Positions 10,326 to 49,882 of a DNA stretch of 64,000 nt are shown here, piece after piece. Each line of letters begins with the position of its first letter. Within the stretch, counting starts at the first letter, position 1. The DNA lies in NCBI GenBank assembly GCA_963825135.1, contig CAWGRW010000009.1:512001-576000 (forward strand), written 5' to 3'. Under the pieces are notes generated by a model. That model had not been told where the DNA came from and made no database searches. It was given only the letters and a program-made list of their open reading frames with translations. Source of the stretch: an uncultured bacterium (GTDB lineage: Bacteria; Desulfobacterota_D; UBA1144; Nemesobacterales; UBA2774). The position numbers and the translations under genes were made by a program.

Positions 10326-11747
10326 TCATGACCTCGGCTCTTCGAGCAGGATGAAAAGGACGTTGTCGCTGAAGGCGGGGGATTTGGTCAAACCCAGGTG
10401 GTCCGTGAAGAGGAAGGTAACGTTTGACCACTTAATCGGAGAAACGAGGTTAGGCGTCCAGTACCCCCCCACCCTCTCGTCCTCAAGCGCGCTTGCCCGC
10501 GTCACCGTCCCGTCGCCGGGGCTGTATTGGGACACCTCGAATTTGCCCGTGGATCTATCGACTTTAAGCCCCGAGCCCGTGAGAATCGCGTCCCCGGCGA
10601 TCAGATACAGCTTCAGGCCTTGAGGGAGCTCGGCCGGGGTATCTATCGCGTCCTGAAATTCTTTTGCGCGTTTTAAGGATTTTCTTAAATGATCTATGGC
10701 GATTTCACGCCTCTTCGCCGGATCCGGCACGTCCGGAAGCAGCCACTCGAGCACCTTGTCCTGTCCCGGGTCGGCAAGGCCCCAGCCGAGGCTTACCCAG
10801 GTTTCAGCATCCATAAGGTCGAGCCTGCCGCCGCTCTCGTCCACGACCTCTCCGTGCCTCGTCCTCGGCAGCTGCTGATAAAGTGAAGGCATCGTCGCTA
10901 TTACCGCAGGCTCGTATTTGGGAAGAAAGGGTCCAATGTCCTTCCCCTTGACGAGGGTCTCGACGGCCCCGACCGCGCCCGCGTTGGGCGTGCCCACGAT
11001 GATCACCTTCTCGACTAATTTCGCACCCTCCCACGTCACCACCGGTTTCGAGCCGTCCTCCGGCAGGTCGCTGTCGCCGTACATGAGGAAATACCGTGTA
11101 AGAAGGCCGCCCATGGAATGGGCCACTATGTCGAATTTGACATCTTCCTTCACTATCCCGCGTTTCTTGTTTTCTTCAATAATGTAAGCCCTCTTCTCCT
11201 CTATAAACTTCTTGAGCCGCTTCGCGTTCTCCACGTTATCGAGCCTCCAGTCGTAATCGAACTGAAAGCACGTGAAGTGGTCCTTCCCGTAGTCGATCTG
11301 GTTTAATTTATTGGAGGCGAGGGACTGGTCGAGGTATCCGCCTGCGCCCAGGGTGCTCAGGATGTTGATATACGCGTTTAGCTGAATAGGCAGCCCGAAT
11401 AGCTTCACCTTCACCCTGTCGAGAGCCCCGTCCGAGTGCACGCTGTCCGTGAGGTCGTCAATCGGGACGCCCTCTTTCATCGGGATAGCGATGAGGCGCG
11501 CGCCTTCAGGGGTCTCAGGATCGGCCTCGCCCCCGTCAAACGCCCCCCAGACGAGCTGGCCCGTCTCGCCGTCCCTCAGCTTCGAGCCCAGTATACCGGG
11601 TATCAGGATAACGGGATTGCTCTCGACGTCCGAGCGCATCGCCGCCTGCGTGTATATCCCCCCGAGGTCTGGCGGGGCGTACTCCGCCCTGGCGCAGGCA
11701 AGTAATACCGTGACTGGTATAAATAAGACCGATATTAGATTTCTCAT
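10326..11747 (-). CDS. Lipoprotein, alpha/beta hydrolase of lipase/LCAT-like acyltransferase type
   Basis: Lipobox LLAC; PVILIPGILGS, YDWR, AHSMGG nucleophile elbow, GDGTV and C-terminal His. Confidence 0.85.
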   Translation of the reverse strand: MRNLISVLFIPVTVLLACARAEYAPPDLGGIYTQAAMRSDVESNPVILIPGILGSKLRDGETGQLVWGAFDGGEADPETPEGARLIAIPMKEGVPIDDLTDSVHSDGALDRVKVKLFGLPIQLNAYINILSTLGAGGYLDQSLASNKLNQIDYGKDHFTCFQFDYDWRLDNVENAKRLKKFIEEKRAYIIEENKKRGIVKEDVKFDIVAHSMGGLLTRYFLMYGDSDLPEDGSKPVVTWEGAKLVEKVIIVGTPNAGAVGAVETLVKGKDIGPFLPKYEPAVIATMPSLYQQLPRTRHGEVVDESGGRLDLMDAETWVSLGWGLADPGQDKVLEWLLPDVPDPAKRREIAIDHLRKSLKRAKEFQDAIDTPAELPQGLKLYLIAGDAILTGSGLKVDRSTGKFEVSQYSPGDGTVTRASALEDERVGGYWTPNLVSPIKWSNVTFLFTDHLGLTKSPAFSDNVLFILLEEPRS

Positions 11748-39501: not shown

Positions 39502-40485
39502 ATGGCAACACTAGTTACGGGGGCCACGGGGTTTTTAGGCTCTCACATAGCGAGAAAACTGGCGGAGAGGGGGGACAAGGTAAGGATTCTCCTCAGAAAG
39601 ACCAGTAAAACGATAAATATCGACGATATCAACGCTGAGCGGGTTTACGGCGACGTAACTGACATAGACTCGATCAGAAAAGCGCTGGAAGGCTGCGATA
39701 CACTCTACCACGCGGCGGGCATCGTATCGCTCAAGCAGGCAGATTCCAAAAAGATGGAGGATATAAACGTAAAAGGTACCTGTAACGTACTCATGGCAGC
39801 GATGGAAGCGGGCGTGAAAAAAGTGGTCTATACGAGCAGCGTCGCCGCAATAGGGTTAAAACCGGGGAAAGAGGCCGCCGACGAAGAGACGCCGTTTGAC
39901 CCGGCCGCGACCGACATCCAGTATATCAAATCGAAATACTACGCGGAGCAGGAGGCCCTTAAATTTTTCGGGAAAGGCCTGCCGCTCGTGATCGTCAACC
40001 CTTCGATAGTGATAGGCGCAGGAGACGTCTACGTCTCGACCACGGGTATCATTCTCTGGTACTGCAAGAGGAGGTTTCCGGGATATACGGACGGAGGCAT
40101 AAATCTCGTCGACGCCGAAGACGTCGCCACCGGACACCTGCTTGCGGCGGAGAAGGGCAGACTTGGCGAGCGCTACATACTGAGCAGCCGCAATATCACC
40201 ATAAAAGAGCTATTCGAGGTCATAGAGAAGGTGACGGGAATCCCGGGACCGAAGATGAAGATACCCTACCCGCTCGCTTACATGGGCGCGTTTATCGCCG
40301 AGCGCGTATTCGGCATACCCGCGCCCAACTACTCAGCCATTCAACTAGACTCTATAAAGGCGTCAAAGCACTACTGGTATGTCGATAATTCAAAGGCGGT
40401 CAGGGAACTCGGCTTCTCTACGAGGCCGCTTGAAGAAACAATAGAAAGCACAGTAAAGTGGTTCAAGGAAAACGGTTATCTGTGA
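39502..40485 (+). CDS. NAD-dependent epimerase/dehydratase (HpnA/dihydroflavonol-reductase-like extended SDR)
   Basis: TGATGFLG, YTSS, YIKSK (YxxxK) and GRLGERYIL motifs. Confidence 0.9.
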   Translation: MATLVTGATGFLGSHIARKLAERGDKVRILLRKTSKTINIDDINAERVYGDVTDIDSIRKALEGCDTLYHAAGIVSLKQADSKKMEDINVKGTCNVLMAAMEAGVKKVVYTSSVAAIGLKPGKEAADEETPFDPAATDIQYIKSKYYAEQEALKFFGKGLPLVIVNPSIVIGAGDVYVSTTGIILWYCKRRFPGYTDGGINLVDAEDVATGHLLAAEKGRLGERYILSSRNITIKELFEVIEKVTGIPGPKMKIPYPLAYMGAFIAERVFGIPAPNYSAIQLDSIKASKHYWYVDNSKAVRELGFSTRPLEETIESTVKWFKENGYL

Positions 40486-41691: not shown

Positions 41692-41720
41692 TTGAAACAA
41701 AAAACAAATTGCACTAAACT
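41692..41720 (+). promoter_or_regulatory. sigma70-type promoter upstream of the riboswitch
   Basis: TTGAAA-N17-TAAACT, about 20 nt before the aptamer. Confidence 0.6.
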
Positions 41721-41739
41721 TGCAAAAAGGGTTAGTATC

Positions 41740-41832
41740 CTTCCGAAATGGCAAACTATCCGAAAGGGTAGGACGCAAAGCCTCAAGCCTAAGGACGCCT
41801 GAGCGGTGTCTAGGGCGGTTGGGTTGCCGAAG
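41740..41832 (+). ncRNA. c-di-GMP-I (GEMM-I) riboswitch
   Basis: GGCAAAC-TATCC-GAAA-GGGTA-GGACGCAAAGC…CCTAA…GGTTGCCGA matches the class I consensus (GNRA tetraloop, CUAA receptor); P1 CTT(C)CG/CGAAG. Confidence 0.93.
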
Positions 41833-41950
41833 AACGTATACTTGCAATAATTCTAATAATCAAGGATTATTATGGTAGAGCTATAAACAAATATATTAAC
41901 AATGTTAAAGAACAATGCTAAAATAATTTTTTGAGAGGGGGATCCGAATA

Positions 41951-44707
41951 ATGGGGATAATAATCCGAGAATCGAAAGAACGGAGAAGGCATGAAAGAAT
42001 CCCTGTGGATTTTCATGTCTATTCGAAAAATTCCGGCAAGAAGATCGGGCAGGCGAAAGACCTCTCGTATAAAGGGCTATTCATACAAACTGAAGACGAG
42101 TTCAAGCCGGGAACTAAGCTCCTTCTCGAGTGTGATTTATCAGGCACGTTTCCCATCAAGGCCTACTGTGAAGTAAAGAGGCACGAAACAAACGGTACCG
42201 GCGAGCACGGTATCGGGGTCGAATTCATAAACATATACGATTCGGACAGGACGAAGTTAGAGAGCTATATCGAGAAAAGTAAAAATACCCTCAACTCCGA
42301 CGACTATTATCTATCCGACTTCGCGGACATCCCGGACGAGGACCTCTTTAAAAAGGCCGAAGTATTCTGGCAATACGGACTGGACATGGCGTCGAAGGGA
42401 TACATCAGATACAGAAGACCCCTGGCGTCGCCCTCGGCGCACAGAGTGATCATCGACGACGACTTCACCGGAAAGAAAAAAGAGATGATCATGATGGGCA
42501 GCAACAACTACCTCGGGCTCACATCCCATCCGAGGGTTATGAAAATAGCCAAAGAAAATATCGATAAATACGGCGCAGGCGCAGGCTCGGTGCCGCTCCT
42601 GGCCGGGTCGTTCGACATACACAGGCGGCTGGAGATGAAGCTGGCCGAGCTCAAGGGCGCAGAGGACGCGATAATCTTTCCGAGCGGATACGTTACGAAC
42701 CTCGGATGCATACAGGCGCTTGTTAAAAATGAGGACCTCGCGGTCATAGACAGGCTCGCCCACGCGAGCATCATCGACGGCTGTATGCTGTCCTCAGGCA
42801 CATTCAGGACATTCAAGCACTCGGACGTCCGGAGCCTCGAAAACGTATTAAAAAGAAATAGAGACAATTTTAAAGGAAGGATAGTTATAGTCGACGGCGT
42901 ATACAGCATGGACGGGGACATAGCCCCTCTCAGGCAGATCGCCGAGACGGCCCACAGGTACGGCGCCAAGGTTATGGTGGACGAGGCTCACGCCACAGGT
43001 GTCATTGGGGACAGGGGCAAGGGAACTCCCAGCCATTTTAAAATGAAGCCCGGAGAGATAGATATCGTTATGGGCACGCTGAGCAAATCCCTGGGCGGCG
43101 TCGGCGGATTCATAGCTTCGACGAAAGAAGTAGTGAGCTACCTGAGGTACTACACCAGGTCCTTTTTCTTCTCGTCCAATTTCCCCCCTTCCGTCGCGGC
43201 CTCGGTACTGGCCGCGATCGAGGTAATGGAAACGGATAAATCCATCCACGAAAACCTCTGGAAGAATATCAAGCACATGAAGGAAAACCTGAAATCAATG
43301 GGATTCAACACGGGGCAGACCGAGTCGGCGATCATCCCCGTTATGACCGGCGACGAGCTCACCCAGAAAAAGATGAGCAGGAGGTTCCATGAAGAGGGGA
43401 TATACGTAAACGCGATACCTCATCCCGCCGTGCCGAAAGGACATGAAAGGTTCAGGTTCAGCCTAATGGCCACACACACGCGCGAAGACATCGACAAGAC
43501 GCTCGAGGTTGTTGAAAAACTGGGAAGGGAATTCGGTATCATCGACAGACCGGTCTCTCTCTACGTGTCTGAAAATGACAAATACACCGTGAGAGAAATA
43601 TCTACCAAAGAGGAGATCGAAAAATCTGTCAGGTTCTCGTGGGGAGTGTACAAGGATTATCCCGCGTGGGTGCCTTACTTCCTGATAAAAGATCAGGTTA
43701 AGCTCGTTTCGAACGACTACTTCTACTTCAGAAAGGTCTACGGGAAGCGGTTCGTTGTGGAGGAAAAAGGAGAGATAGCGGGAACCGTAAGTGCGTTTAT
43801 CGACAATTACTACAACCGTTATCACGATACCAACGCAGGGTTCCTCGGGTTTTTCGAGGCCCTCCCTGAAAAACAGGAAGCTGTGGGACTGATGCTGAAG
43901 AAGGCGGAAGATTTCCTCACCGGCAACGGATGTACCGAGCTGCAAGGACCCGTGAACGGGATATTCGGTCTCTTCGGCGGCGGCCTGCTCTCGAGCAACT
44001 ACGGGAAGATACCGTCCTTCCTCCAGGTATACACCCAGCCCTACTACCACGACTATTTCACAAACGCGGGGTTCGGGCCGGTGAAAAAGCTCCTGCACTA
44101 CACTATAGACCTTAAATCGCCCGAGAACGTGGAAGCGATAATGAAATACTCTCGGGAATCGGCGCTGCAGGATATAAAGATAAGGCGAATGAACAAATCC
44201 GACTGGGAGAACGAGGTGAGGAGCGTGGTCAGGATTTTCAACAATTCCCTCGCTCAGCTCTGGGGCAATGTCCCGTTTGACGCCGACGAGTTCATAGAGA
44301 TCGCGGATGAATTCAAGAGCCTTATAGTTCCCGAATACTGGCTAATCGCGGAATCGGCCGGCGAAGCTATAGGCTTCATAGGGGGATTCCCCCAGTACGC
44401 TTCCGTATTCAGGGGCTTAAACGGGGAGATCAAGCCCCACAAGCTGGTGACGCTGCCCCTCCGGCTAAGAGGCATCAAGGAAGGCGTGTTAATGATCATG
44501 GGCCTCATGGACGAATTTAAGGGAAGGAGAATCGGCACCCTCCTCCTCAGCAGAGTCTGCGAGGCGATGATCGGGAACGGGTACGAAAAGGTAGCCGGCA
44601 CATGGGTTCTGGAAGATAACCTGGGCTCGCGGCGTATCGTGGAGAACCTGGGCGGCAAGGTAGATCTATACTGGGATATGTATTCGAAAACACCTGTTAC
44701 AGGCTGA
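41951..44707 (+). CDS. Fusion: PilZ + PLP-dependent alpha-oxoamine synthase (SPT/BioF/CqsA family) + YghO/bCerS-like GNAT N-acyltransferase
   Basis: RRHER and DLSYKG (PilZ); SNNYLGL, HASI, DEAH, GTLSK (alpha-oxoamine synthase); VYKDYPAWVP, GFLGFFE, GPVN, RRIGTLL, TWVLEDN (GNAT). Confidence 0.88.
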   Translation: MGIIIRESKERRRHERIPVDFHVYSKNSGKKIGQAKDLSYKGLFIQTEDEFKPGTKLLLECDLSGTFPIKAYCEVKRHETNGTGEHGIGVEFINIYDSDRTKLESYIEKSKNTLNSDDYYLSDFADIPDEDLFKKAEVFWQYGLDMASKGYIRYRRPLASPSAHRVIIDDDFTGKKKEMIMMGSNNYLGLTSHPRVMKIAKENIDKYGAGAGSVPLLAGSFDIHRRLEMKLAELKGAEDAIIFPSGYVTNLGCIQALVKNEDLAVIDRLAHASIIDGCMLSSGTFRTFKHSDVRSLENVLKRNRDNFKGRIVIVDGVYSMDGDIAPLRQIAETAHRYGAKVMVDEAHATGVIGDRGKGTPSHFKMKPGEIDIVMGTLSKSLGGVGGFIASTKEVVSYLRYYTRSFFFSSNFPPSVAASVLAAIEVMETDKSIHENLWKNIKHMKENLKSMGFNTGQTESAIIPVMTGDELTQKKMSRRFHEEGIYVNAIPHPAVPKGHERFRFSLMATHTREDIDKTLEVVEKLGREFGIIDRPVSLYVSENDKYTVREISTKEEIEKSVRFSWGVYKDYPAWVPYFLIKDQVKLVSNDYFYFRKVYGKRFVVEEKGEIAGTVSAFIDNYYNRYHDTNAGFLGFFEALPEKQEAVGLMLKKAEDFLTGNGCTELQGPVNGIFGLFGGGLLSSNYGKIPSFLQVYTQPYYHDYFTNAGFGPVKKLLHYTIDLKSPENVEAIMKYSRESALQDIKIRRMNKSDWENEVRSVVRIFNNSLAQLWGNVPFDADEFIEIADEFKSLIVPEYWLIAESAGEAIGFIGGFPQYASVFRGLNGEIKPHKLVTLPLRLRGIKEGVLMIMGLMDEFKGRRIGTLLLSRVCEAMIGNGYEKVAGTWVLEDNLGSRRIVENLGGKVDLYWDMYSKTPVTG

Positions 44708-44714
44708 TCTGATA

Positions 44715-47288
44715 ATGAATGAGAAACAGCTGACTATGCCGAAATACGGCACTGCGAACATACAGAAATCTGTATTCAGCATAGTTATATTTATTTTGCT
44801 GTTGTTTTGCATAGCAAACTTCGTTTTAGGCCTGAACTGGACAAATAAACCATATCCGGGATTTTTCTTCTATAGAAACCTCGTAATAACCGATATCTCT
44901 CCGAAGACAGTTGACGGAGATTCACTAAAAAGATTCAAAGACCAGATAAAGAAAGTTAATGGCATACCGGTCACAACACCGGGCGATGTATTCAACATAT
45001 TAGACGATCTCCCTGTAGGCACCGAGGTGGACTACACGATAGCGAGAAACAGCGGGACTTTCGATCTAAGAATCCCTATTGAGAGGTTCAGTTTAAAAGA
45101 ACTGCTCGTTATGTTCGGAATCGGATATGTAATCGGCATTGTCTTCCTCGCTATCGGCGTACTCGTCCTGTACAAGAAACCGAACATAAAGGCGAGTAAA
45201 GCGTTCTTCATATTCTGCGTGTCTATTTGTATATGGTTTGTTGGCTCGTTCGACGCGCAGGCCATCTATTTCTTCGACCAGCTGACTTTCTTCTCCTGGA
45301 TCTTCAGTCCGCTCTTCGGCATTTATCTGATGTTCATTTTTCCTTCTGATGCGCAGGTAAACGGAGTGACGCACACCGTCACTTCAATCCTGTTTTTATT
45401 TATCTCGGCAATGCTATTCGTCCTCCAATTCATCTTCTTCTACAACTATGAAATATGGAAATATGTCAATACCATAAGCTGGATTTACGTAGTCCTGAGC
45501 ACCATGATTTTCCCCATCTCTTCGCTCGTGACCTACATGCATCCGTCGTCGGCGCTTGAAAAACAACGCGCACAGATAATCTTGCTCGGCTGCATTTTCG
45601 GCCTCATCGCCCCGGCTTCGGTGGTGGCTTGCATCACGGTCTTTAAAATTAGCATGCCGTACAATCTGATGGCTCTCCCAGTGATAATATTCCCGGTGTC
45701 CATCGCATACTCCATAGTAAAACACAAGCTCTTCGACATAGACGTTATCATTGAAAAGGCGCTCACGTACGGACTCCTCACAGGAGCCGTCGGCGGCATC
45801 TTCGCCCTCACCGTGCTCGGATTCAATGTCGCATTCGCCAAATACGGGGGCTGGAAGAATCCCGCATTCTTCGTAATCCTGAGCGGGTTTCTCGTAATTG
45901 CGTTAAACCCCCTCAAAACCCGGATACAGGACCTGGTAGACCTGACCTTTTTCAGAAAGAAGTACGATTACAGGGGAACCGTCGAGGAAGTAAGCTATGC
46001 GATGACGTCCCTCCTGAGCCTCGACAAGATCATCGATAAGATCATCGATATAGTCGAAAGCACCATGTTCTCCACCCCTGTTACCGTATCCGTATACAAC
46101 CAGGACCTGGGGGCTTATGAGCGGTATTCCAAAGAGGGCGTCATCCAGAGCTCTCCCGATACGACGCTCGCGGAGGACAATATTCTCGTACAGCAGCTCA
46201 ATTTTCACGGAAACGAGATATTCAAGGAAGACCTTATAGCGGACGAGAGGTATATCCACAACTCCCAGAGACTCGTGAACGAATTCGAGAGATTCGGCGC
46301 ATCGCTCATCATTCCGCTTTTTTTCAAAAAACAACTCATCGGCTTCATAGCCCTCGGAGAAAAGAAGTCCGGACTCTCGTACACATCACGGGACGTGAAA
46401 CTCCTAAAGCTTCTCGCAAACCAGAGCGCTATAGCCATAGAAAACGCGCTCGCATTCAAGCTCGTCGAGGACTACGCCAAGAAGCTCGAAAAAACGAATA
46501 AGGAGCTCAAGGATGCGCAGATGCAGCTCGTGCATGCTGAAAAGATGTCCGCGATCGGACAGCTTGCCGCGGGCGTTGCCCACGAGATAAGGAACCCGCT
46601 GAACATCATCGAAGGCGCCAGGTACTACATCTCCACCTACATGATGGACAAAGAAAATACGGAGGTCGTCGGAGAGTACCTCGACTACATAAAACACGAG
46701 ATCGACAGGACGAACCGTCTGATAGACAGCCTGCTCAAGTTCTCAAAAGCCGAGCCGCCCTATTTCGAGAGGGTTAATATAAACAGCGTGCTCGAGAACG
46801 TCGTTATCCTCGTACGCAAGCAGCTCTCGGACAACAACATCAACCTCACCCAGAACCTGGACGAGAACATCCCTCCCATAATGGCGGACCCGAACCAGCT
46901 CTGGCAGGTATTCATAAACATTATTTTAAACGCGATACAAGCGATGCCGAAAGGCGGAGACTTCGTAATAGAGACTTCTACGCGCTGGGACGAATTCGCC
47001 AGCGGGGACTCCGGACACGTCTACATACATTTCAAAGACTCCGGAGTGGGAATAGATAAAGAAGACATGATGAGAATCTTCGATCCGTTCTTCACAAAGA
47101 AAGATATGGGGACGGGACTCGGGCTTTCGATAGCCTACAAGATCATCGAAAAGCATAAAGGAAGAATAATAGTTGAGAGCGAAAAGGGGCAAGGAACGGT
47201 ATTTACGATTGAACTTCCGTCAAATAACTATAATATTACTTCAGGAGAGGTTGATGACGAACACGAAAAAGAGGGTGCTGGTTGTTGA
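44715..47288 (+). CDS. Membrane sensor histidine kinase (TM-PDZ-multi-TM-GAF-HisKA-HATPase)
   Basis: DQIKKVNG PDZ-like motif; about 8 TM segments; GFIALGEKKSG…LANQSAIAIENA GAF; AHEIRNPL H-box; N, G1, F and G2 boxes. Confidence 0.92.
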   Translation: MNEKQLTMPKYGTANIQKSVFSIVIFILLLFCIANFVLGLNWTNKPYPGFFFYRNLVITDISPKTVDGDSLKRFKDQIKKVNGIPVTTPGDVFNILDDLPVGTEVDYTIARNSGTFDLRIPIERFSLKELLVMFGIGYVIGIVFLAIGVLVLYKKPNIKASKAFFIFCVSICIWFVGSFDAQAIYFFDQLTFFSWIFSPLFGIYLMFIFPSDAQVNGVTHTVTSILFLFISAMLFVLQFIFFYNYEIWKYVNTISWIYVVLSTMIFPISSLVTYMHPSSALEKQRAQIILLGCIFGLIAPASVVACITVFKISMPYNLMALPVIIFPVSIAYSIVKHKLFDIDVIIEKALTYGLLTGAVGGIFALTVLGFNVAFAKYGGWKNPAFFVILSGFLVIALNPLKTRIQDLVDLTFFRKKYDYRGTVEEVSYAMTSLLSLDKIIDKIIDIVESTMFSTPVTVSVYNQDLGAYERYSKEGVIQSSPDTTLAEDNILVQQLNFHGNEIFKEDLIADERYIHNSQRLVNEFERFGASLIIPLFFKKQLIGFIALGEKKSGLSYTSRDVKLLKLLANQSAIAIENALAFKLVEDYAKKLEKTNKELKDAQMQLVHAEKMSAIGQLAAGVAHEIRNPLNIIEGARYYISTYMMDKENTEVVGEYLDYIKHEIDRTNRLIDSLLKFSKAEPPYFERVNINSVLENVVILVRKQLSDNNINLTQNLDENIPPIMADPNQLWQVFINIILNAIQAMPKGGDFVIETSTRWDEFASGDSGHVYIHFKDSGVGIDKEDMMRIFDPFFTKKDMGTGLGLSIAYKIIEKHKGRIIVESEKGQGTVFTIELPSNNYNITSGEVDDEHEKEGAGC

Positions 47289-49170
47289 CGACGAGCTCCT
47301 TATATTGAAAATCATTTCCGACATCCTGACCAAGGAGGGGTATGAAGTCGTAGTCGCCAATAACTGCGAGAAAGCGACCGAGTACCTGAGGGCGTCCAAT
47401 TTCAATGTAGTCTTGTCCGACATCAAAATGCCGGTAAAAAGCGGTATCGACCTTCTTGAGGAAATAAAGAAGAAAGACCCGAATATCCCCGTAATACTTA
47501 TGACCGGATTTGCTTCGTTGGAAACAGCGGTTGAGGCAGTACAGAACGGAGCCTTCGATTACCTCATTAAACCACTCGACTACGGGAAACTCAGGAGCGT
47601 CATAGACCACGCAGCCGATAGATTCGAACTCCACAGCGAAAACACGCGCCTGCTGAGCGATTTGAAAGAGCTGAACACGAATCTTGAATTGAAGGTCCGG
47701 GAAAGGAACAGGCAGCTTGAGAATACGCTGAATAGTACGATAGAGAGCATAATCACAACCGACAGGGACCTGATAATAGAATCAGCGAACCCGAAGACCT
47801 CGGAAATTTTCGGCAGAAGCTGCGTGGGCGAAAAACTGAGTCTCTTATTTCAGGGTGTTAATTTTGACACAATTATTCCAAACATTCTAAGCGACCCCTC
47901 ATATTCGACGAAGCACGAAATAAGATACGACAATAAGTTCCTCGAAGTTAGCCTGTCGCCCCTGATCGATTTTGAGACGAAAGAAATTTTCGGCGTGATA
48001 GCAGCGACGGAAGACATAACGGAGAAGAAGAAGCTCGAAGCGCAGCTCATACATTCCGCGAAGATGTCGGGTGTCGGCCAGCTGGCCGCCGGCGTCGCAC
48101 ACGAATTCAATAATATCTTGTCAGGCATCATAGGCTACACGAGCCTCGCGCTCACGAGGCAGGACCTGGACAGCGTCAGGAAAGACCTGAGAGTAATCGA
48201 GAAGGCCTCCGACAGGGCGGTCGAGATAGTGAACAAACTCCTTTCCTTCTCAAGACAAAAAGGGGAGAAATTCCAGGTCGCACAGATAGAGAGCATCATA
48301 GACGACGCGCTCGGACTCGTTGAGCACAACTTCGAAACGGAGGGTATAAGAATACTCAGGAGTTACGAAAAGGTCCCCGCCATCCGATTGAATCCGGGGG
48401 AGATACAGCAGGTGTTCCTGAACCTCGCGATCAACTCGAAACACGCCATGCCTAAAGGCGGAGCGATAGCGATCAGCACGAAGCTCTCCGGCAATTATGT
48501 GAGAATCGATTTCTCCGATACGGGCATTGGCGTATCACCGGAGAACCTGCCCAGGATATTCGAACCCTTTTTCACGACAAAACTGAGCGAGGGCACAAAA
48601 TCCGGCACGGGTCTCGGTCTGTCGGTAATATACGCGATCATAGAAAGACACGGCGGGCGCATCGAAGTATCGAGCGAGGTCAATAAAGGCACGACGTTCA
48701 CGATTCACCTGCCGAACATTCAGGCCATTGCCAAAACTCCCGAGATCGAGCCCGCTCAGAAAGTACAGAACGCCAAAGTAATCGAAATGAGGCGAAAAGG
48801 GAATGTCTTGATAGTCGATGACGAAGAATTCATCAGAGATATCGTAAGTGATTGCCTTTCCAGCACCGGACACAATGTTATGACGGCTGAAAGCGGCGAC
48901 CAGGCGATCGAGCTCATAAAGAGGAATCATTTCGACATCACGTTCCTCGATTTCTCCATGCCTAATAAAAGCGGTCTCGAACTTCTGAGAGAAATAAAAG
49001 TTATCGATCCCAACTCCACGGTGGTAATAATAAGCTCGAGACCGGAAGAGCAGCTCCCGGACGAGCTTTCGGACGAGGGCTCGTACAATATAATTAAGAA
49101 ACCGTTCTCGGTCGACCAGATTCAAAACGCGGTCTCCAGGGTTCTTGGGGCCGAGGCGATGAGCAGATAA
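47254..49170 (+). CDS. Cytoplasmic hybrid kinase REC-PAS-HisKA-HATPase-REC
   Basis: VLVVDDE…SDIKMP…KP; AHEFNNIL; GTGLGL; second VLIVDDE…LDFSMP…KKP; AGGAGAGG SD before ATG at 47254. Confidence 0.93.
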   Translation: MTNTKKRVLVVDDELLILKIISDILTKEGYEVVVANNCEKATEYLRASNFNVVLSDIKMPVKSGIDLLEEIKKKDPNIPVILMTGFASLETAVEAVQNGAFDYLIKPLDYGKLRSVIDHAADRFELHSENTRLLSDLKELNTNLELKVRERNRQLENTLNSTIESIITTDRDLIIESANPKTSEIFGRSCVGEKLSLLFQGVNFDTIIPNILSDPSYSTKHEIRYDNKFLEVSLSPLIDFETKEIFGVIAATEDITEKKKLEAQLIHSAKMSGVGQLAAGVAHEFNNILSGIIGYTSLALTRQDLDSVRKDLRVIEKASDRAVEIVNKLLSFSRQKGEKFQVAQIESIIDDALGLVEHNFETEGIRILRSYEKVPAIRLNPGEIQQVFLNLAINSKHAMPKGGAIAISTKLSGNYVRIDFSDTGIGVSPENLPRIFEPFFTTKLSEGTKSGTGLGLSVIYAIIERHGGRIEVSSEVNKGTTFTIHLPNIQAIAKTPEIEPAQKVQNAKVIEMRRKGNVLIVDDEEFIRDIVSDCLSSTGHNVMTAESGDQAIELIKRNHFDITFLDFSMPNKSGLELLREIKVIDPNSTVVIISSRPEEQLPDELSDEGSYNIIKKPFSVDQIQNAVSRVLGAEAMSR

Positions 49171-49186
49171 TAAAGCGCGACGGAAT

Positions 49187-49549
49187 ATGGAAGACGCTCC
49201 TTCTTTTTACTGCAAAATATTCGTAAACGAAAACGAGATATATTCGGGAGACTTCGGGGAAGTCCCCGAGAAGTTCAGGACCGGCATGGTCAGGGACCTG
49301 TCGGAATGGGCGGGATCGCTCGGCAAGAGGGGCCTGAACGAGCTCATTTATTCACACCTCGCCTGGTATGAAGAAAAGGGTCAATATTGCGAGGAGTGCG
49401 GAACGTGGAAGGCGGAAAGCGGTGTGAAAGAGTGCGGCGAGTGCGGAAAAAAGCTGAAAGAACGTTATATTTATGAGCGGGAGAAGAGGCTCGACATGAT
49501 TATCACCTGTGTGGGAATGATATCAGGAGTGCAAATTTCAGCAGCTTAG
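49187..49549 (+). CDS. Hypothetical protein with a zinc ribbon
   Basis: CEECG…CGECG pair. Confidence 0.7.
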   Translation: MEDAPSFYCKIFVNENEIYSGDFGEVPEKFRTGMVRDLSEWAGSLGKRGLNELIYSHLAWYEEKGQYCEECGTWKAESGVKECGECGKKLKERYIYEREKRLDMIITCVGMISGVQISAA

Positions 49550-49591
49550 AACGGAAGCCTGACGACAGGCGCAATTCAATAGGGGTCGAAA

Positions 49592-49882
49592 ATGAAATTA
49601 ACAGTTAAAGGTCAGATTTTTCCCGGGGTCTGGAAGATCGCGGATAGCGTCAGGAAACTGAGAGACGACAGAAAGCCCGTTAATATAGGATCCGGGACGG
49701 TCGGATTTCCCGTCTATGAAGTGGACCTCCCGGACAATACCAGAAAAGAGGGTCTATACTTTGTGACTCCGGAGGGCACAAGACTCTACTTTAACCCTGG
49801 CGATCAGTATCAGGTCGGCTACCTGATATCCGAAACCGACAGCGACCCGCTGCGAGAAAAACATTTTAAAGGGACCGCATAA
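49592..49882 (+). CDS. Hypothetical protein
   Basis: 96-aa ORF with AGGGG SD. Confidence 0.6.
   Translation: MKLTVKGQIFPGVWKIADSVRKLRDDRKPVNIGSGTVGFPVYEVDLPDNTRKEGLYFVTPEGTRLYFNPGDQYQVGYLISETDSDPLREKHFKGTA

Follow-up and report, generated by a model that had tools for sequence, protein, structure and literature searches.

A putative c-di-GMP-controlled signal synthase and the sensor part of its candidate receptor kinase, exchanged together among Candidatus Dadabacteria

A 64,000 nt stretch of contig CAWGRW010000009.1 (positions 512,001 to 576,000, GenBank assembly GCA_963825135.1), hereafter the window, comes from an uncultured bacterium of the phylum Candidatus Dadabacteria. It includes a gene for a 918 aa fusion protein made up of PilZ, alpha-oxoamine synthase (AOS) and GNAT parts (41951–44707), followed by the genes for a membrane histidine kinase of the PDZ-7TM-GAF type (TM, transmembrane helix), here called HK1 (44715–47288), and a hybrid kinase, HK2 (47254..49170). 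These genes, the leader elements ahead of them and the zinc-ribbon gene behind them lie on the forward (+) strand. Comparison with related loci indicates that the AOS enzyme and the sensor part of HK1 (aa ~1–320) are an exchangeable cassette, and that the kinase core follows kinship. The locus probably encodes a polymorphic pair of signal synthase and receptor, used in quorum or kin sensing, with an N-acyl aminoketone as the signal and cyclic di-GMP (c-di-GMP) in control.

Joint exchange of the enzyme and the sensor

A set of 52 loci was dereplicated to 42, and then to 31 for building trees (29 under the mixture model), with segments dropped if they had less than 75% coverage or contained stops. 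When the window was compared with G006, a genome of the same genus, identity was 52% in the AOS, 41% in the GNAT, 28% in the PDZ domain and 40% in the TM part of the sensor, versus 96% in the next helices of HK1, 91% in its kinase part, 88% in HK2 and 91% in AroC. DNA homology was lost from position 42056 of the window (PilZ aa ~36) and regained at 45681 (HK1 aa ~323), and the G+C content was 0.40 inside the exchanged segment versus 0.48–0.54 beside it. HK1 is thus divided into a sensor part exchanged with the enzyme (44715..45680), consisting of TM1, the PDZ domain, helices 1–6 and the outer half of helix 7, and a transmitter part that follows kinship (45681..47288), with two further TM helices, GAF, HisKA (H623) and HATPase. 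The identity step at aa ~320 was found in seven more lineages (G046-G054, G064/G044-L133, G064-G065, G056-G066, G067-L127, L135-L136 and G048-G052), making a total of eight in which close relatives differ up to this point of HK1 and match beyond it.

The phylogenies were consistent with this division. Six loci (G006, G011, G066, G067, G068 and L133), spanning five classified genera and one metagenome, formed one clade in both the AOS and the sensor trees (100/100, 31 rows), which was upheld under the mixture model (29 rows) and in the GNAT tree. The same clade was rejected by the approximately unbiased test (p-AU) for the kinase core (5e-40), HK2 (4e-51, 5 rows) and AroC (6e-58, 3 rows), and the clade of the genus was rejected for the AOS (2e-88) and the sensor (7e-52). 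Across the 42 loci, AOS and sensor had a partial correlation of 0.69 given the core, and AOS and core one of 0.15 given the sensor; none of 5000 permutations reached the AOS–sensor correlation, although kin are not independent. The corresponding values for the GNAT were 0.92 and 0.23 (27 loci). Among 17 non-overlapping sister pairs, all six with a swapped AOS had sensors at 33–68% identity, and nine of the ten with an unchanged AOS had sensors at 61–95%; one further pair was distant. The PilZ domain does not strictly follow the cassette type (p-AU 0.022), and the left border of the cassette is therefore variable.

The genes beside the AOS vary by lineage, and include a GNAT, an OleD-like short-chain dehydrogenase/reductase (SDR), a zinc dehydrogenase, S-adenosylmethionine-dependent (SAM) methyltransferases or a TIGR04551-related barrel-like protein. 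The sensor clades largely match this tailoring content, falling into GNAT-A, GNAT-B, GNAT-less with an outer-membrane-barrel-like gene, and methyltransferase-linked groups. The pocket motifs of the AOS also differ between cassette types, and the sensor carries type-specific conserved residues, with diagnostic columns at aa 56-61, 176-178 and 195. Remnants of tailoring genes were seen in G044 (the first 25 codons of the SDR gene, L063:~11380-11460) and in L136 (an internally deleted zinc dehydrogenase gene, L136:8518-9063).

In G048, the promoter, riboswitch, ribosome-binding site and ~40 first codons of the AOS gene of its congener G052 are kept and are followed by a methyltransferase; a second protein with this type of chimeric start exists. 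No NCBIfam model matched the methyltransferase. Among 120 listed homologues, 23 rows are named (48–56% identity), and 14 of these are called '3-hydroxypalmitic acid methyl ester biosynthesis protein', a PhcB-type label assigned automatically at source. The named function corresponds to that of PhcB, the quorum-signal synthase described in PMC7694676. The earlier note on this DNA had suggested that the adjacent kinase may sense the product of the enzyme. This proposal gains support from the sequence comparisons, with the joint exchange and the PhcB-labelled occupant of the enzyme slot providing independent support.

Two loci (L096:9447-11969, the second locus of G036, and L118) contain HK1 alone, with neither the enzyme nor HK2, between aroC and a zinc-ribbon gene. 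The sensors of these receptor-only loci branch among the GNAT-A types, and an HK1 with no enzyme is possibly an eavesdropping receptor.

The enzyme and its predicted product

The AOS domain (42296..43555; aminotransferase I/II match at aa 178-520, E 7.9e-57) was placed in the AOS family because the catalytic residues K379 (the pyridoxal phosphate, PLP, lysine), H271 (the stacking His) and D344 and H347 (of the DEAH motif) are present, as is the fold, the model superposing on Spt and ThAOS with TM-scores of 0.93–0.94. It passed no NCBIfam cut-off. The best scores were to BioF/Kbl-family models (409/535, 395/460 and 390/426, score/cut-off), and those to the Spt equivalogs were all below the cut-offs (379/640, 345/500 and 291/670). 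The match to the CqsA-type model NF005526 was among the weakest (207.6/428 bits), and among solved structures CqsA scored 124 bits versus 245–298 bits for Spt, Kbl and ThAOS. Identity as CqsA or LqsA was rejected on these scores, and the likeness to those synthases drawn in the earlier note does not extend to the enzyme.

The residue at the amino-acid gate is V214, in the motif GSVPLLAG, at the position of ThAOS-V79 and SmSPT-S81. According to PMC11906848 and PMC10196870, this site controls the choice of amino acid, Kbl having Val and Spt having Ser there. The S-R-x-x-N loop of Spt is missing, and 13 Dadabacteria AOS sequences formed their own clade (100/98) apart from three sphingolipid-cluster references, in a tree with few references. 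Identity as a canonical Spt was rejected on the three cut-offs, the valine gate, the missing loop and the separate clade. The amino acid in the predicted product is probably one other than serine. A separate BioF is encoded in the genome behind bioB- and bioA-like genes and, from this context, it is that AOS which serves biotin synthesis.

The remainder of the fusion is a double-GNAT acyltransferase (43586..44707; Pfam GNAT at aa 791-901). This C-terminal part of the fusion, 373 aa, matches YghO/bCerS homologues over 98–99% of its length at 23–26% identity, with E values to 5e-37, including 5e-36 to Sphingomonas and 6e-30 to E. coli sphingolipid-cluster proteins. It is the sole bCerS/YghO homologue in the genome. 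Aligned with four references it shared 14 invariant columns, yet it formed a long separate branch, and no solved structure matched this half by sequence. Homologues of the GNAT are located in spt-acp-reductase clusters (PMC9386255). According to the same source, the ceramide acyltransferase of Caulobacter corresponds to YghO in E. coli. The action of Spt and then bCerS yields oxidised ceramide, as reported in PMC11087976. Because of this homology and order of reactions, the predicted product is likely an N-acyl aminoketone.

The parallel with Spt plus bCerS proposed earlier thus stands for the GNAT, a full-length homologue, but not for the AOS, which is not a canonical Spt. Likewise, the GNAT is part of the layout in the window but is absent from 12 of the 39 genomes that have an HK1 orthologue. 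No gene for an acyl carrier protein (ACP), acyl-AMP ligase, LptFG or CerR-type protein was found within the unit, and for CerR-type partners elsewhere in the genome there were only generic SDR matches at 25–33%.

Two further observations concern AOS relatives. In L087:6900-8552 (G063) and L126, the PLP lysine is replaced by His and DEAH by DDTH, beside a methyltransferase; this variant is possibly a pseudo-enzyme. Outside the Dadabacteria clade, P0073, P0084, P0090, P0085, P0099 and P0115 are related AOS enzymes that either carry REC or PilZ domains or have FemAB-like acyltransferase, adenylation-carrier or methyltransferase domains as fusion partners, and together they may form a wider set of signal-regulated AOS enzymes.

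The kinases

The PDZ domain claimed for HK1 had no direct match in the window protein itself but is supported by its homologues, of which 30 of 50 aligned match PDZ_2, by the HK1 profile, which matches solved PDZ domains, and by a model showing the PDZ fold. In the sensor model (pLDDT 85.9), TM1 is followed by the PDZ domain at aa 42-125, by a bundle of seven helices at aa 127-335 and by two additional helices. In this model the exchanged part would hold everything that faces outward and end midway in the seventh helix. The PDZ domain, 10 predicted helices and GAF do not fit the layout of CqsS and LqsS, described in PMC3376566 as six N-terminal helices with no periplasmic domain, and membership of that receptor group was rejected.

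No Foldseek match to the sensor model was found at E <= 0.001. The best matches in a wide structure search were designed G protein-coupled receptor (GPCR)-like folds, at Z 14.1 with 200 aligned and an rmsd of 3.4, and class C GPCRs, at Z 12.6, with no AgrC or CqsS-type entry among the matches listed. The resemblance may only reflect a common helical-bundle arrangement. The PDZ-7TM-2TM-GAF input module (P0250-P0399) is widespread, with 1,443 cluster representatives at E <= 1e-30, and among 52 that were scanned the module was joined to a kinase in 24, a nucleotide cyclase in 13, a SpoIIE phosphatase in 10 and a sigma54 activator in one.

HK2 overlaps HK1 by 35 nt when read from its likely ATG at 47254, and has the order REC(D56)-PAS-like-HisKA(H283)-HATPase-REC(D566). 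The two REC domains and the kinase were as first described, but the PAS signal was weak, at 20.7 bits versus a cut-off of 27. The gaps are 7 nt between the fusion and HK1 and 16 nt between HK2 and the zinc-ribbon ORF; the layout given in the earlier note, comprising the riboswitch, fusion, two kinases, gaps and overlap, was borne out by Rfam, Pfam and the coordinates. In G044, G064, G065 and G068, a REC-HD domain gene lies upstream of the locus. A 57% homologue is found elsewhere in the genome of the window, and the REC-HD protein is a candidate for the output of the system.

The c-di-GMP input

A sigma70-like promoter (TTGAAA-17-TAAACT, 41692..41720, 9/12 consensus) lies ahead of the riboswitch. 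The site is present as claimed but is not significant alone, since the scan found 3 sites versus 1.1 +/- 1.1 in shuffles; all 16 aligned leaders share its TTG and TAxAxT letters without change. The c-di-GMP-I aptamer (RF01051, 41740..41831) scored 78.2 bits with the covariance model, above the gathering threshold of 35 (E 1.1e-13). It is followed by a conserved AT-rich leader (41832..41950) that includes a ribosome-binding site and two promoter-like sites 3' of the aptamer, at 41842-41870 (TTGCAA-17-GATTAT) and 41896-41924 (10/12). No intrinsic terminator was found in the leader after the aptamer.

Position 20 of the aptamer, presumably placed correctly by Vc2 numbering, is G in all 16 leaders. 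G20, together with C92, marks c-di-GMP aptamers and A20 marks cyclic GMP-AMP (cGAMP) variants, according to PMC6140456. The riboswitch was therefore assigned to the c-di-GMP type, and the cGAMP reading was rejected. The Asp that is missing from Hypr enzymes is present in all five GGDEF domains of the genome. When the aptamer was locked in folding predictions, the unpaired fraction of the ribosome-binding site rose from 0.30 to 0.55 in the window and likewise in most leaders, an outcome which the constraint itself favours, and in free leader RNA the 5' strand of the aptamer was weakly predicted to pair with this site. The predictions give a weak hint that the riboswitch is a translational ON switch.

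A riboswitch was found 5' of the fusion in all 18 genomes of family f1 with upstream DNA; the linkage claimed earlier is kept there but is not universal outside f1, where a riboswitch was found at the loci of 7 genomes and at 3 of 12 metagenome loci. In five loci the riboswitch is 3' of the AOS and ahead of a kinase or tailoring gene, and the kinases are therefore tied to the same c-di-GMP input. The PilZ domain (41978..42274; aa 10-108, E 1.4e-14) carries R12xxxR16 and D37xS39xxG42. Its c-di-GMP motifs, RxxxR and (D/N)xSxxG, are kept in 53/56 and 50/56 orthologous domains, respectively, and by sequence both c-di-GMP receptors look intact.

The genome holds 10 RF01051 riboswitches, 5 GGDEF domains and 2 PilZ domains. 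From ORF translations, the other nine riboswitches lie ahead of an operon resembling pilM-Q (1675096), a cluster for polysaccharide export (2164445), a subtilase-like gene, a gene for a 1390-aa protein and genes for several secreted proteins, which read as a surface-lifestyle regulon. The main contig contains a single further match to the leader palindrome, which yielded no regulon. Elsewhere, three tandem c-di-GMP-I aptamers were found on one strand in G036 (G036:C87:7818-8472), which has 16 in total, and aptamers of 135–155 nt with an insertion in the second hairpin were found at L090:6729-6865, L061:13072-13206 and L088:6022-6176.

Distribution in the phylum

Among 120 genomes of the phylum, in which kin are again not independent, an HK1 orthologue was found in 39 (41 matches less two weak paralogues), HK2 in 38, all of them within the HK1 set, the PilZ-AOS N-terminus in 35, the GNAT in 27 and the riboswitch family in 44. 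All 39 HK1 genomes fall within those 44. The synteny check that had been proposed showed the fusion homologues to be linked to the kinases, with HK1 following on the same contig in 37 of the 38 genomes that have any part of the enzyme. In the remaining genome, G034, the AOS runs off the end of its contig and no HK1 was found. The same genome contains a fragment of a PhcB-labelled methyltransferase gene directly before the zinc-ribbon gene, with no kinases (L183:4997-5305). Split ORFs in the fusion, HK1 and housekeeping genes of the relatives L046, L048, L052, L068 and L125 are likely assembly indels. The contigs obtained from four DNA read runs were all fragmentary, and no joint was recovered at the borders of the cassette.

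Proposed mechanism and alternatives

From the observed anatomy, motifs, linkage and joint exchange, we infer a route that would connect the product, the ligand–receptor match, the direction of c-di-GMP control, phosphotransfer and output. The AOS would condense a small amino acid, with glycine or alanine likelier than serine given the valine gate, and an acyl-thioester to an alpha-aminoketone, which the bCerS-like GNAT would N-acylate to an oxidised-ceramide-like N-acyl aminoketone; in relatives, reductases or methyltransferases would tailor the product instead. The outward-facing PDZ-7TM part of HK1 would recognise the product, and the first REC of HK2 would receive phosphate from H623, with onward transfer to unlinked regulators, possibly c-di-GMP enzymes. 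c-di-GMP would act via PilZ and via the riboswitch, which probably works as a translational ON switch. Movement between strains of the cassette, from inside PilZ to HK1 aa ~320, would change the chemical dialect and leave the input and output wiring native. More tentatively, the locus may represent a new signal class, in which ceramide-like N-acyl aminoketones, with reduced and methylated variants, are made only at high c-di-GMP and sensed by a GPCR-shaped PDZ-7TM kinase, with dialects traded between genera.

Several points weigh against a signalling pair. The choice of sister pairs and groups was made with the trees already in view, and the enzyme and sensor are in places discordant: the AOS of G044 and G065 are 93% identical, but the sensors share 47% and the tailoring gene differs; in G056, a G044-type AOS is combined with a GNAT and sensor of type A, the sensor tracking the GNAT; and L136 and L121 are also placed differently between trees. 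A wider group of 10 loci was supported at only 76/59 in the AOS tree, and the PhcB-type label on the G048 homologues is, as stated above, automatic. Neither an AOS nor a GNAT was found near distant HK1 homologues (31–37% identity) at any of 27 parsed loci, many of them on short contigs, with 11 more unparsed; the enzyme–HK1 link therefore appears confined to the phylum. No riboswitch was found at the loci of 9 non-f1 genomes or at 9 of the 12 metagenome loci, and the promoter-like sites 3' of the aptamer could let transcription bypass it. The operon has neither a DNA-binding regulator nor an exporter, and a two-chain lipid would be poorly diffusible. As PDZ domains usually bind peptide C-termini, HK1 may instead read an envelope protein. 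Joint exchange can also arise mechanically, given that recombination depends on conserved flanks and that the sensor is fast-evolving. Such hitchhiking is less favoured because of the type-specific sensor residues, the receptor-only loci and the replacement of the enzyme by an unrelated one labelled as a signal synthase.

Hitchhiking of the sensor half in an unsplittable block would also be expected if the enzyme made a c-di-GMP-induced, structural ceramide-like membrane lipid and the co-transcribed kinases sensed something else. Some enzyme–sensor discordance, the GNAT as the only, full-length bCerS/YghO homologue of the genome with relatives in spt-acp-reductase clusters (PMC9386255), the presence of Spt among the best structural matches of the AOS, and the pilus and polysaccharide genes behind the other riboswitches are all consistent with this. 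We nevertheless consider it unlikely, as the AOS is under all three Spt cut-offs, has a Kbl-type valine and no Spt loop, and branches apart from the three sphingolipid-cluster references, the unit lacks genes for an ACP, an acyl-AMP ligase, LptFG and a CerR-type protein, and 12 of the 39 HK1 genomes have no GNAT. It also explains neither the repeated exchange, the receptor-only loci nor the replacement by an unrelated methyltransferase.

Enzyme–sensor co-variation is accounted for equally well if HK1 senses the membrane-resident product of its own cell, or damage that the product reports, and feeds back on c-di-GMP, with types differing as the lipids differ. A two-chain lipid would remain in the membrane, and the window operon encodes no exporter. 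However, the receptor-only loci, the PhcB-labelled replacement and the barrel-like genes of the GNAT-less types suggest an outside molecule, and the repeated swaps between genera suggest frequency-dependent selection, making such self-monitoring quite unlikely. It is very improbable that the neighbours are unrelated and that the AOS is either a spare BioF or a short-chain, Kbl-like metabolic enzyme using glycine and acetyl-CoA. The top NCBIfam models and the valine gate point that way, but all scores are below cut-off, a separate BioF exists behind bioB-/bioA-like genes, and pocket motifs that vary strongly by type and two loci with no catalytic lysine are unlike a housekeeping enzyme.

Relation to known systems

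In CqsA/CqsS and LqsA/LqsS, as described in PMC3376566 and PMC5007282, an AOS-family synthase is found beside a membrane histidine kinase with N-terminal helices as the presumed ligand site, and the locus resembles them in both respects. It differs in its distant AOS, its receptor with a PDZ domain, 10 helices and GAF, its fused N-acyltransferase, PilZ and riboswitch, and its exchangeable types. Comparable co-varying types are the pherotypes of Bacillus comQXP. In the staphylococcal agr groups, the synthase and N-terminal sensor co-vary, the C-terminal kinase is conserved and the border is inside the receptor gene, as outlined in PMC5007282. Unlike agr and comQXP, the cassette has a predicted small molecule rather than a peptide, a diderm host and types that cross genus and family lines, and there is no homology. 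From sequence and analogy, the system appears to function like CqsA/CqsS and evolve like agr, and falls outside CqsA, CqsS and Spt.

The order of an AOS and then a bCerS/YghO-family acyltransferase is shared with the Spt-bCerS-CerR pathway to oxidised ceramide, as presented in PMC11087976, PMC9386255 and PMC11334938. The locus differs in its AOS, which is not a canonical Spt, its unit with no ACP, acyl ligase, CerR or LptFG, the PilZ fusion, the tie to a receptor and the optional GNAT. Ralstonia phcBSRQ has the same order of synthase, membrane kinase and hybrid kinase/regulator, and PhcB and PhcS split by signal type in PMC7694676; one relative has the methyltransferase with PhcB-labelled homologues. 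The AOS-GNAT synthase and predicted c-di-GMP gating set the locus apart from it.

BcsA and Alg44 are PilZ-gated enzymes. Like them and the c-di-GMP-I regulons, the locus has intact PilZ motifs on a biosynthetic enzyme and a canonical G20 aptamer; unlike BcsA and Alg44, the target is a PLP enzyme that forms C–C bonds, and both c-di-GMP layers are on one gene. No description of the system was found in full-text literature searches judged by titles and the starts of abstracts. Within signalling by a synthase plus sensor kinase, the chemistry, the receptor module and direct gating by a second messenger appear to be new here.

Few quorum-sensing chemistries are known, and nearly all come from cultured bacteria. 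In this case a synthase and its probable receptor are paired by comparative genomics alone, which also furnishes natural combinations of cognate and non-cognate partners, and the claim is testable in a laboratory strain with no need to culture the host. If correct, it would add a lipid-amide signal class and link c-di-GMP directly to signal production, with the second messenger licensing an autoinducer synthase at both the RNA and the enzyme level. It would also bring agr-style dialects to a diderm small-molecule system and provide the first ligand for a PDZ-7TM sensor module of >1,400 protein clusters. Spt-like and bCerS-like genes found together need not mean structural sphingolipids.

Neighbouring genes

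The zinc-ribbon protein gene downstream of HK2 (49187..49549, two CxxC) had been counted in the operon but does not belong to the system, as it occurs in 99 of the 120 genomes, including ones with no system, versus 39 for HK1. In G044, G064, G065 and G068 it is not adjacent to the system. It is a positional neighbour, near-universal in the order and conserved, and lies with the ORF that follows it within 49187-49882 of the window. The SDR gene upstream (39502-40485) was rejected as CerR, as it scored 350/368 to HpnA and is absent from several loci. A CRISPR array with 12 CRISPR-DR2 repeats lies downstream of the locus in L136 (L136:17006-17770). The ORF after the zinc-ribbon gene, of 96 aa and with no Pfam match, is also conserved.

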